Assembly: GCA_958009085.1 (NCBI GenBank)
Contig: OY253682.1
Coordinates: 372,001-436,000 of the forward strand
Length of the DNA stretch: 64,000 nt
Origin: Protoeuglena noctilucae
Taxonomy: Eukaryota
Direction of reading: 5' to 3'
Below, one piece after another: positions 29,834 through 33,921 of the stretch. The translations under genes were made by a program, and so were the position numbers. The notes beneath the pieces are model-generated. The model saw nothing but the letters and a program-made list of their open reading frames with translations, did not search any database and was not told the origin of the DNA. Within the stretch, counting starts at the first letter, position 1. Each line of letters opens with the position of its first letter.

Positions 29834-31318
29834 TCAGGCCATGTAGCCATCCCTGGAGGGCAGCCAGTAATAACGCCCCCCGGCTTTCAGGGACCCACGG
29901 TAACCCAGCTGCCAGTAAGGTCGCTCCCCCGGCACGTCAATGCCAAAAGCAGGCTGTGCACCGTACCCCAGGCACGCCACCTGCAGCAGGACATAAGCTG
30001 TCAGGCCCCACACGGGCTGCGGCAGGTCCCCGTACTGGAAGCTGTGGATGCGGATGCGCAGGCCAGCCCGTCGCCCATCCCCCCGCCGCCGCTTGGCCGG
30101 CGGGGCGTCGCCAGCCACTCCCGCCTCGCTACCCGACACACTGGCATCGTGCGCGCTGCCAGATTCTGGAGCGTCGGGGTCCTCCTCGAGGTACCGCACA
30201 TCCCGCGACTGGTGCGCGGACGCAGGGGGCCTGGAAGCACAGAACAGGGCGTGTATGGGTCATGCTACCACGCTATCACACACGAGCAGGGTGCCAAAAT
30301 CGATATGCTGGCGGTTATCTTTGTGCAGCACACTCGCCTGACGAACATGGACAGGGGGCACGAGAAAACCTCTTCGACCTCGGCCGTGGACGGCCGCACC
30401 TCGAACGCCGCCGTGGGCTCTTCGTCCAGTGCAGAGAGGCCCGCATCTGAGCCTCGCTCTTGGAGTCTCGAGGGAGGTTTGGAGAGGTCTGGGCGGTCGT
30501 TGTCAGAGCCCTGCGCGGGGCCCGGCCTCAGCCCGACCACCGCGTCCGCGCAGCGTAAGAGGGCGACCACGGGCGTGACTGACAGGCAGTGCTTGCTAAG
30601 GACGGGCGGCAGGCACCCCAGGACTTCCACAGAGTCCGGAGGTAGGCCGACCTCCTCAAACGCCTCTCTCTGTGACGGTGAGAACCGAAAGGCGACGCTC
30701 ACCACCGGCTGTGGCCGTGAGGGGCTTCATGCACGGGACTGTCGGGAAACAGAACGCGCACTCTTGCTTGCCTTGGCTGCGCTGGCGTCATCTGCGTCTC
30801 CCGGGTCCCGCTTCCCGCCGGGGAGCGCGCACTCCCCCGGATGAGACTTCAGCGCGCTGGAGCGCCGCGTGAGCAACACCCGCGCGCCGCCATCCGTGCC
30901 GCGAAGGAGGAGGACCAGGACCGCAGCGCGGCGATCCGCCACAGAATCAGGGTCTCCGCCTGCGTAACGCACATCATTTCTCGGCGACAGCCGGCCTGGG
31001 CGAGGCAGCGAGCGAGCATTCCACTCAGTCACCTCGGTCTTTCAGCTCTCGCCGCAACCTCGCGGCCACGGCGCCGTAAGGCTCCCTCGCGTCCAGCTCC
31101 TTCGCTTCGGGGGAGGCCACGAACCCGCCCGCGTCACCTGAGCGCACAGCAGTGAGCGCGGCGACGCGTCGCGCTAGCGAGGCGAACGACTCGAGACTGC
31201 AGGGGTGTCGAGGGCCTAGGCAGGGTCGTTGCTCCCGCAACAGTCCAGCAGTCCGTGGCGAGCGAAGAGCTGGGGCGCAGACGCACCGAGGACAGCTTGA
31301 AGCGGCGCAGCGGAGCAT
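29834..31318 (-). CDS. Nudix hydrolase, CoA diphosphatase type (NUDT7/plant NUDX11/15-like)
   Basis: RAAVLV..L, LLTRRSSALKSHPGECALPGG (NuCoA motif) spliced to AAK|REAFEEVG (Nudix box), EVEEVFSCPL and VWGLTA. Two GC-AG introns. Confidence 0.9.
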
Positions 31319-31677
31319 AGGGACACGTGCAGCGTGTTCGAGACAAATCCGCGTCGCGCTGGAGCGTCCATTGGCCTGCGTAGAGTTATGTGCATCGATC
31401 AGACTGCCGTGGCAATCCTGATCGCAACAGAGATAGAACAGTCCTGGGAACGGCGACCCCTACTCGCAATCTTGCCGCAAAACCGCGTGCGTCTGGTCTT
31501 GCTTTTCCCAGTCGTGACGCGTCCTGACAAAATCTGTGGGCCATGGGCCGGGCCCTGGTGCGTCAGAGTTTGATGTGCGCTTGCGCGTTTCGGGTTGCCA
31601 GAGCTGCGGCCCATTGCATCGCTTCTCCAGGCCCACACCGCGAGCACTTGTGTGGGACTGGGCGCTCGCCTGCCATC

Positions 31678-32431
31678 ATGCCGCGCGTGGACTTGGCCTC
31701 CCTCCCGTACGATGTGATGCTTGAAATCATCCGTGCCCTGGGCAAGGACATCGACACGATAGGCGAGAAGCACAGCCACGCAAGCTAGCGTCGCGGGTTT
31801 CAGACTGCGCCACGAGACGCCCCACCTTCGTGTCCCTCGACCCCAGTGTCGCTCGTGGTCACTTGCAAGGCCTGGGGGGACCTCTCGAGGACGCCTGCGT
31901 TCTGGGCGACGGTGCTGTCGTCGTTCGGGTTCGACGCCCCGCGAGTCATTGCGATGGAGCCGCAGAGGGCGAGGGAGGAGGCGCACAAGTTCTTCTGCGA
32001 GCGCTGCTACGTGTGCTTTGAGAGGCGCGTACATGCGAGATGCTTTTCGGCCTCAGTGACTGCCCACGAGCGTTGCTAGCCCGCTACCCAGACCCAGCTA
32101 GACCTTTGAGGGCTGCTCTGCTCTGCTTCGCAGGACGCCCGAGCGCGTGGTGACCATCCGAGAACTCATGGTGCGCCTGTGCCGCGGATGCCGAGACGAG
32201 ATTGCGGAGATCAAGGACCTTCGCCTCGTCAGCACGAACGAAGCCATGTCGCGGCACCGGTTGCGGAAGGAGCACTTGGCCGACCTCCCCTACGCCGTCA
32301 CCTCCAACCCGATCAATCCGTCGTGGGATCCAATGAGGGTGTATCGCCGCAGGGACGTCGTGGCCCGGAAGTGGGAGGTGCAGGGCGAGTTGATCGGCGC
32401 AACTCGCAAGGGCCGCCGGAAGGGTCGTTGA
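31678..32431 (+). CDS. F-box protein with XPA-like C4 zinc finger and XPA_C-like domain
   Basis: Exons 31678-31762, 31847-32024 and 32134-32431. F-box: LASLPYDVMLEIIRALG...VSLVVTCKAW...FW. Zinc finger: CYVC-x18-CRGC. XPA_C-like: LVSTNEAMSRHRL...NPINPSWDPMRVY...VVARKWEVQG. Confidence 0.75.
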
Positions 32432-32448
32432 CACACAACTATGTTGTT

Positions 32449-33921
32449 TCACTCGTCTTTTAGCGTCGGCCCTTCTAATGCTGGCGGCAGTGCGCTGATC
32501 CGGGGCACGAGCAGCCAGCTCCACCACCCGCCAGGCCCAAACACGGCGCGCAGGTTGGCACGCGCCTCTGCGTGAGGCACCCCTGAGCCGCAGTAGCCCC
32601 CCCGGTTGCAGTTGAATGGACAGCACTCCTCCTCCGCGTCGCCCTGTGCGCGCGGTCACCCCCATAGGCATCGCCTGCGCTTGGGCCAGGGCGAGCTGGT
32701 GCGCGGCTGACGTCGCAATGCTCGCTCACCTGGAGGTTTGAGATGAGGGAGGTGCCGCGGATGGCGAGGCTGAGGGTGCTGAGGCCGAGGCTCAGGAGCA
32801 TGCCGGAGAGGACGATGCCGAACACGCCGCCCAAGATGGCCATCATGCCCCACGCGCTGAGCACGACCCCGATGTGCGTCGGGACGACGAACAGCATCCG
32901 CGCCACGGCGGCCGCGAACCCGGACGGCCCGGGGCCGTGGCCGAGGTGTACGAACGCGGAGCTGCGACCATACTGGGCTCGGAATGTGCGGGCCAGGCTG
33001 TGTTGGGACAGGCTGTCGACCGCCCCCCAGGGGTCTGTGGCCAGGGCCGCCAGGCAGACCGCTCCCGACCAGCCCGTGCCAACAGCGGCCCAGAACACGA
33101 AGAGTAGGAAGGGCCGCATGGTCTTGGACCCGACGCAGTTGGCGACAAACGGACAGTGGTGGTCCATACCCCTGACGCAGTGCCCGCACGAGCTGCAGTG
33201 GTGCGCGTCCGGGGGCTTGAAGAAGCGGCACTTGCTGCAGTACCGGTAGCCGGCGTAGTGGCCGCTGGGGACGGCTGCGGGGTCGCGCCAGCCGAGCAGG
33301 ACGGCCGGGGAGGGCTGCACGGTGGCGGGCCTCGTGAAGATGGACACGAGGTAGTGAAGCGTGATGTTGACGGAGAGGTACAGGCACCACGCGGAGTGCA
33401 GGCGCGCGAGCGTCGGGTGGCCTGTGAGGAAATGCTGCTCCACCAGCGTCGCGGCCGCGTGGGTCAGCCACGCGATGAGCGCGAAGACGATGGGCACGAG
33501 CACGTAGCCGACACCCGCCCACAAGAAGCCGCGCCACGTCCGGAAGCGCTGCGGGCGCCAGGATGCGAGAGTTCAAGTGCGGAGGCTTCCCTAGAGCGAG
33601 TCGAGGGAGCGCGACAGTGCGCAGCCCACCTGGGGGCGCGCATCCGGGGACCCCGGCTGCGGCGATGGAGTCTCCCCGTACGCTCCGCAGTGTCCGCAGG
33701 CGTATTGCCGGGGAGGCTCTCCGCTGCGCGGCAAAGAGGGAGGGCGCGGGGGCAGGGCGTTGCAATGCCCACGTCCTCCCCTCGAGACATACCATCGATG
33801 ATCTCCACGCGCCTCCATACCTGCTAGTTGCAGGGAACTCGATCTCGGTGCAGCACGCCCAGCATCGCACGCGGACGGGCAGGGCGTCGCGCGGCCCTGC
33901 CTCTGCACCCTCCCCTCCCAT
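32449..33921 (-). CDS. DHHC protein S-acyltransferase with N-terminal CxxC...CxxC motif (plant PAT11-like)
   Basis: CSKCRFFKPPDAHHCSSCGHCVRGMDHHCPFVANCVG; multiple TM segments; N-terminal CWAC...CGHC; C-terminal PFN...NLRAVFG...WLLVP; TGA at 32451-32449. Confidence 0.92.

Follow-up and report, generated by a model that had tools for sequence, protein, structure and literature searches.

The window, by which we mean the whole stretch of 64,000 nucleotides of Protoeuglena noctilucae DNA analysed here, contains a three-exon gene whose product carries an N-terminal F-box, a C4 zinc finger and a core like that of the repair protein XPA (Table 1). The coding sequence of 561 nt (GC3 0.86) encodes 186 amino acids followed by a single terminal stop codon, slightly short of the ~190 residues originally predicted. 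Two introns of the GC-AG type had been proposed from the DNA alone, and both joints, with intron ends that read GC..AG, were found in contigs from four publicly available marine RNA runs (no more than three samples of one study; the contigs carry neither strand nor level). One contig (X1, record 2) spans both joints and includes all three exons, which shows that the transcript connects the F-box exon to the last one. Contigs of run X4 contained neither joint of the gene, and one of them enters intron 2, representing either unspliced RNA or DNA. The gene is real and is spliced in this green alga. The three-exon model also came top of 1,028 stop-free GT/GC-AG models scored with an HMM of 22 homologues from which the window's own fragments were left out; the other 1,027 scored below it, and the RNA joints back the chosen one. 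The protein could be longer by 35 residues if it began at an in-frame ATG at 31573, but the context there is weaker, and GC3 is 22/35 as against 23/28 in exon 1. These sequence features favour the start codon of the 186-residue protein and make the upstream ATG the less likely start.

Table 1. Features of the locus, in window positions, and the XPA-type gene on another contig of the same genome
Feature	Position	Strand	Description
Exon 1	31678..31762	+	aa 1-28: start codon, first F-box helix (L-x-x-L-P-x-D-V-x-x-E-I pattern)
Intron 1	31763..31846	+	GC..AG, 84 nt, phase 1, interrupts F-box; joint in 2 of 4 RNA runs
Exon 2	31847..32024	+	aa 29-88: remaining F-box (C-K-x-W ... F-W), helical linker, first Cys pair (Cys82 at 32005, Cys85 at 32014)
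Intron 2	32025..32133	+	GC..AG, 109 nt, phase 2, interrupts zinc finger; joint in 3 of 4 RNA runs
Exon 3	32134..32431	+	aa 88-186: second Cys pair, XPA_C-like core, basic tail, stop
F-box motif	31690..31923	+	aa 5-54, broken by intron 1; found with homologue F-box HMM
C4 zinc finger	32005..32191	+	C-x2-C-x18-C-x2-C, Cys82/85/104/107 equivalent to XPA C105/108/126/129
XPA_C-like sheet-helix-hairpin core	32222..32359	+	Pfam PF05181, 1xpa alignment, residue map
Trp152 codon	32324-32326	+	equivalent of the XPA Trp175 wedge
Alternative upstream extension	31573..31677	+	35 in-frame codons; less likely start
Antisense GC..AG intron	31534-31669	-	136 nt, good splice consensus CAG/GCGAGC ... CACAG; spliced in one RNA contig (X3)
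NUDIX hydrolase gene, divergent	30727-31371	-	Pfam E 2.8e-6
DHHC palmitoyltransferase gene, convergent	32475-33572	-	Pfam E 1.4e-23
XPA-type gene	L001:1177-2002 on contig C7	-	predicted introns; G motif, x17 finger, Trp wedge, long basic helix

The gene lies between a NUDIX hydrolase gene, whose motif presumably places it near CoA-pyrophosphatase-type members, and a DHHC palmitoyltransferase gene. Splicing of the antisense intron implies an antisense transcript, which overlaps the F-box gene at its 5′ end and probably serves the divergent NUDIX gene as 5′ leader. Near 32644-32729 the DHHC gene contains a GT-AG intron of 86 nt, removed in three of the four RNA runs, and one RNA contig runs through both the F-box and the DHHC genes, consistent with overlapping 3′ ends. 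GC donors were present in three of the four RNA-supported introns between 31534 and 32729, suggesting a high share of GC-AG introns in this alga. Elsewhere in the same genome (26.3 Mb, 27 contigs) rbcS occurs on two contigs and is interrupted by an intron, which marks the host as an alga of the green lineage.

The downstream part of the protein has the arrangement found in XPA/Rad14 (Pfam XPA_N PF01286 and XPA_C PF05181; TIGR00598), a C4 finger followed by a sheet-helix-hairpin core. The two cysteine pairs of the finger, preceded by an additional Cys79, are separated by 18 residues (17 in XPA), and the family profile aligns all four ligands with those of XPA. Exon 3 alone matched Pfam XPA_C with 20.7 bits (E 4e-4), under the cut-off of 25 bits that many relatives exceed, an XPA_C search of the genome gave 22 bits at this gene, and the best PDB matches of exon 3 were all human XPA (E 0.006-0.013). 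A profile built from 17 family sequences spans the finger and core of human XPA (E 5.7e-14), and also matches Rad14 (2.2e-12) and ZnT9 (5.5e-5). Structures were modelled for two relatives, one from Chlorokybus at full length (pLDDT 86.7) and one comprising the finger and core (pLDDT 88.6). The Chlorokybus model superposed on residues 136-212 of XPA (6lae) with Z 10.0 and rmsd 1.7 Å over 73 residues, the finger lying outside the superposition. When the finger-and-core model was compared with 48,161 chains, the top six rows were Rad14, XPA and ZnT9 (best Z 7.3, rmsd 5.0 over 89 residues); the next row scored Z 3.9, and the folds that followed were mostly MerR/excisionase-type DNA binders. Since the finger does not superpose along with the core, and the domain model fits only at an rmsd of about 5, the finger may pack differently from that of XPA. 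A structure search of the ESM Atlas returned XPA_C clusters (TM 0.59-0.63); its feature search gave leads only, including a giant-virus cluster at 0.78, and for homologue P0003 one Atlas cluster scored 0.93, with fungal F-box clusters reaching 0.85-0.86.

The exon 3 motifs quoted originally are present, and profile and fold support the finger and core, the fold being that of the relatives' models rather than of the window protein itself. On this evidence the core is beyond doubt XPA-like, and profile and modelled fold identify the last 105 residues of the protein as paralogous to the minimal DNA-binding domain of XPA/Rad14. The same core fold is shared by the XPA-like domain of ZnT9/SLC30A9 (2enk; Z 7.7, rmsd 4.3 over 73 residues), a cation-efflux transporter that has no F-box and in which the match covers the core but not the finger. 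Because this use of the fold lies outside repair, fold alone does not prove DNA binding.

The architecture is shared by a family of proteins. A phmmer search of 1.84 billion representatives gave 28 matches, one of them the window gene's own fragment. XPA_C was present in 25 and an F-box in 15; 14 had both, nine of these with both domains at or over the cut-off, and the matches without both domains were mostly short fragments. Nineteen of the matches, together with three proteins from alignment searches, formed a 22-row alignment in which every row spans finger and core and which includes near-duplicates (P0015/25/52/53 and P0009/51). Kept out of it were the own fragment, four partial fragments, three divergent non-F-box proteins, and P0013, a repeat artefact scoring 1.2 bits. 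All 22 rows retain the finger ligands (C-x2-C-x17-34-[C/H]-x2-C), and the layout in green algae is an F-box, a C4 finger and an N-P-x4-[WF]-x2-M-x-L-Y-R hairpin, with the chain ending near XPA position 210. Among the complete forms seen, the window protein is the most compact. In the tree it nests with P0002 (97/93) and P0011 (96/94) on a long branch of its own; the tree holds a single XPA row, itself on a long branch, and so neither roots the family nor reveals where it came from.

Named members among 30 representatives that were looked up are Chlorokybus atmophyticus EP00898_P002575, Micromonas commoda XP_002505540.1 (annotated ‘F-box domain-containing protein’), Auxenochlorella protothecoides KFM22354.1 and Parachlorella kessleri GAB4820118.1; the names of the relatives are automatic only. 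The first three records contain both F-box and XPA_C, and that of Parachlorella is a 122-residue fragment without the F-box. We take Chlorokybus to be a streptophyte alga and the other three to belong to the chlorophyte side. With members on either side of the chlorophyte-streptophyte split, the family probably dates back to the green-plant ancestor. No land-plant member was seen among the named hits. The two alignment searches each gave four proteins among the matches listed, of 8,000 candidates, and are silent on land plants and fungi. A word-indexed search with exon 3 against longer proteins gave none among 129 candidates, and a metagenome scan with P0002 confirmed no locus among 596 pattern matches. 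In the alga's own genome, searches with XPA_C and P0022 produced only two credible matches among the best candidates scored, the window gene and a gene on contig C7. Candidate L009 was a chance match (the 3′ part of its frame resembles a glyoxalase by eye) and L010 contained two stops. As only the best candidates were scored, the count is a lower bound, and by these searches the gene is apparently single-copy.

The XPA-like module has been reused in other settings. Giant-virus XPA-like proteins appeared among BFVD matches, namely a ‘RAD14’ of Clandestinovirus (E 3e-6) and proteins of Catovirus, Klosneuvirus and Fadolivirus (‘XPA domain’), and P0021, a protein of 216 amino acids, has two tandem XPA_C-like cores with no match to the finger or the F-box. 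A Pandoravirus quercus protein annotated ‘F-box domain containing protein’ (A0A2U7UAM6) matched the finger-and-core model in Foldseek (E 4.2e-4, 124 columns, TMq 0.43). Since that model holds no F-box, the Pandoravirus protein probably shares the whole layout, and by this structural match the layout is likely to occur in giant viruses too.

We compared the family with XPA at the residues that touch DNA. Lys167 and Lys168 of XPA, which we take to face DNA, are not conserved in the family, position 167 being acidic in 18 of 22 homologues and position 168 basic in none. The accessible text of PMC9739396 does not give them as DNA contacts; the direct contacts it lists include Trp175, K151, K179, R207, K141, T142 and R211, and the hairpin bearing Trp175 is described as sitting between the strands at the junction (PMC6599211). 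The position of Trp175 is Trp or Phe in 22 of 22 homologues. Basic residues occupy the positions of K151 (15/22), K179 (13/22, with His in six more), R207 (17/22) and K141 (11/22), and Thr or Ser that of T142 (13/22); R211 is matched by a basic residue in eight, eight other chains having already ended. Also kept are N169-P170 and M178, and with them most backbone contacts. Arg at XPA position 182 is specific to the family and invariant (22/22), and three to four residues more than in XPA follow the finger. In the window protein S121, T122, N123, R132, W152, R156, R159 and K184 correspond to XPA positions 140, 141, 142, 151, 175, 179, 182 and 207, so that K141 and T142 are replaced by Thr and Asn.

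The family differs from XPA most clearly at the C-terminus. Residues 219-239 of human XPA are reported to be required for full DNA affinity (PMC9739396, PMC10810185), and 17 of the 22 homologues end before them, at XPA positions 210-212; family members finish in an Arg-rich helix over the R207-R211 contacts. The window protein ends at the equivalent of 209, within its basic tail. A basic cluster near the N-terminus, a possible nuclear localization signal, is present in 14 of the 16 F-box-bearing members and absent from the window protein.

These comparisons suggest, with what we regard as an even chance, that the protein is an SCF (SKP1-CUL1-RBX1) substrate receptor, from a small family with a long history in green plants, which would bind junctions of single- and double-stranded DNA and ubiquitinate the proteins found there. 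A receptor of this kind had been proposed originally, and it gains from the retention of the wedge aromatic and of most direct basic contacts; its action at junctions is something we infer from sequence. The alternative that survives best keeps the SCF receptor but turns the XPA-like module to a protein degron, making the conserved hairpin the substrate site and leaving no role for DNA. Most F-box receptors read proteins, the charge of the hairpin is reversed at position 167, Arg182 is a family-specific invariant, the basic helix is truncated and the same fold has been reused in ZnT9; in the available part of Kose et al. (PMC10810185) the F-box clade clusters with a cation-efflux clade. However, recognition of a degron alone sits poorly with an aromatic wedge kept in every homologue, with mostly basic equivalents of K151, K179 and R207, and with the Arg-rich helix and the basic cluster described above, and we consider it rather unlikely.

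A ligase function depends on the N-terminal domain, which stands where XPA has a disordered N-terminus. The two halves of the F-box, encoded by exons 1 and 2, had no Pfam match singly. Joined, residues 1-60 scored 32.2 bits on an HMM of homologue F-boxes and 28.7 bits on an HMM of 15 homologues without the closest relative, whereas the best of 500 shuffles reached 6.6 bits. The 17-sequence profile matches the F-boxes of GID2 (E 5e-7) and FBXW7 (2e-6), and relatives of the protein pass the Pfam F-box cut-offs, with some members below them. The Chlorokybus model superposed on the F-box of Cdc4 with Z 8.3 and rmsd 3.1 over 72 residues; SKP1-bound F-boxes were fitted at Z of about 8, and those of Cdc4 and FBXO3 were matched in fold. 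By motif and fold, the fold again taken from relatives' models, the window protein is an F-box protein, as had been predicted from its N-terminus, and matches to the SKP1 domain are found on three contigs of the same genome. One could still suppose that the F-box is degenerate or works independently of SCF, in which case the protein might be a small factor that binds DNA or acts in chromatin, or might compete with XPA for its site. The lack of a Pfam match for either piece and the members under the cut-off would suit such a non-ligase, but the joined F-box lies far above its shuffles, is kept in 15 of the 28 matches, the rest being mostly short fragments, and has the fold of SKP1-bound F-boxes. 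We regard a non-ligase as improbable.

The original prediction also raised the possibility that the protein is a green-lineage substitute for XPA. This possibility fails for the alga's own genome, which has a separate XPA-type gene. Its XPA_C match (C7:949023-949139) scores 42.9 bits, over the cut-off, with a weak XPA_N match (E 0.06) directly upstream. The gene is predicted to encode 218 amino acids across two GT-AG introns, with a Gly-Gly-Phe motif near the start, a C-x2-C-x17-C-x2-C finger and a helix extending to XPA-equivalent 265 that has nine Lys or Arg residues in 212-239; it matches human XPA with E 2.6e-7. On the family HMM with its own fragments left out the window protein scores 138 bits, against 44.8 for this XPA model. 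ERCC1 is present in the same genome, and a predicted complex between the N-terminus of the C7 protein and the ERCC1 central domain scored 0.39, against 0.02 for the best control, with one of three runs at 0.08. The partner had a pLDDT of about 46, the runs agreed in at least 38% of contacts and a comparable complex has been solved. Among 78 solved pairs 51 reached the mark, as did 2 among 108 mismatched ones, but no more than 5 of the 78 did so with a value of 0.60 or less. This prediction lends weak support only to an interaction.

In contrast, the window protein lacks the ERCC1-binding G motif (Gly72-Phe75 in the available text of PMC9739396), and a G-G/S-F string ahead of the domain occurs in one of 22 relatives. 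Having ended at 209, it also lacks the extended helix of XPA (212-239) and the C-terminal tail with C261/C264. Against the TIGR00598 cut-off of 113 bits exon 3 scores 24.9 and full-length relatives 31-55; the C7 exons, scored one by one, reach 46.1 and 18.0. With neither the G motif nor the extended helix in its sequence, the window protein is not an XPA orthologue. Substitution, or a back-up role, in green-lineage nucleotide excision repair could nevertheless be imagined in other algae. By our own count from table S1 of PMC10810185, only one of the 32 chlorophyte proteomes has XPA; two algae with the F-box family, Micromonas commoda and Auxenochlorella protothecoides, are XPA-negative in that table, and in the accessible text the authors leave open an undetected XPA-like protein in plants. 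But a family with neither the means of binding ERCC1 nor the long helix, and with no land-plant member among the named hits, is a poor replacement. We judge the idea very unlikely overall, and barely open for Micromonas and Auxenochlorella. The same survey used the C261/C264 pair as a signature, according to its available text, and the C7 gene has no Cys after its finger, and so no such pair; genes of this type may therefore have been filtered out, and XPA may be less widely absent from green algae than reported. Least probable of all is a module for junctions of RNA or of RNA-DNA hybrids, as in R-loops or at a stalled RNA polymerase, instead of damaged DNA. An aromatic wedge on an Arg-rich surface would suit any nucleic-acid junction and the loop residues are unlike those of XPA, but the nearest relatives with solved structures are bound to DNA, and the next folds are mostly DNA binders.

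Returning to a receptor that reads DNA junctions, the F-box would dock on SKP1, and the finger and core would bind a single/double-strand nucleic-acid junction or kinked DNA in the manner of XPA, with basic residues on the duplex backbone and the aromatic tip of the hairpin stacked on unpaired bases. With the long basic helix truncated and a different charge pattern on the hairpin, affinity for DNA would be lower than that of XPA and specificity changed. The ligase might then ubiquitinate proteins parked at such structures, be it a repair bubble, a stalled fork or a transcription bubble. The basic cluster in the relatives, though not in the window copy, hints at a nuclear location. As the protein has no XPA-type way to recruit ERCC1-XPF, it would act beside the alga's own XPA and not in its place. 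We presume that precedents for receptors on DNA that ubiquitinate nearby proteins are found among the DNA-targeted cullin ligases, such as FBH1/FBXO18 (SCF), KDM2A/B (F-box and CXXC), CRL4-DDB2 and yeast Rad7-Rad16-Elc1-Cul3. These are not known to use an XPA-type domain and share homology in the F-box only, and by analogy the F-box/XPA-like protein may work as they do. More speculatively, and we think this doubtful as a whole, an ancient green-plant SCF aimed by DNA structure instead of a protein degron could use the XPA-derived wedge at repair-bubble or fork junctions, possibly the site of XPA itself, and ubiquitinate TFIIH, RPA, XPC or a stalled polymerase so that the complex is passed on or taken apart; in algae with a genuine loss of XPA it might take on the junction-marking part of the XPA role.

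The layout is not as novel as it had seemed, being conserved across distant green algae and known to automatic annotation. Kose et al. (2023) put aside as an outgroup an ‘F-box clade’ of XPA homologues with XPA_N/XPA_C hits, said to have ‘lacked conserved cysteine residues’; the accessible text gives neither a member list nor a function (PMC10810185). Compared by description only, the present family, possibly the same as that clade, keeps the finger ligands in all 22 homologues and lacks the C261/C264 region. A characterized F-box/XPA protein was not found in the literature searched, which excludes most subscription papers. The family is thus conserved, uncharacterized and already glimpsed in print. 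With one printed sentence on record and no XPA replacement here, the locus matters less than first hoped. How green plants carry out excision repair without XPA is nevertheless named as an open question in the available text of PMC10810185, and green algae appear to possess the XPA DNA-binding module in a second conserved form, in which it is attached to an F-box and retains the DNA wedge. The protein would be a candidate for a small, easily expressed ubiquitin ligase guided by DNA structure, open to study through point mutants of W152 and R159, and in Micromonas and Auxenochlorella, hosts of the family with public genomes.
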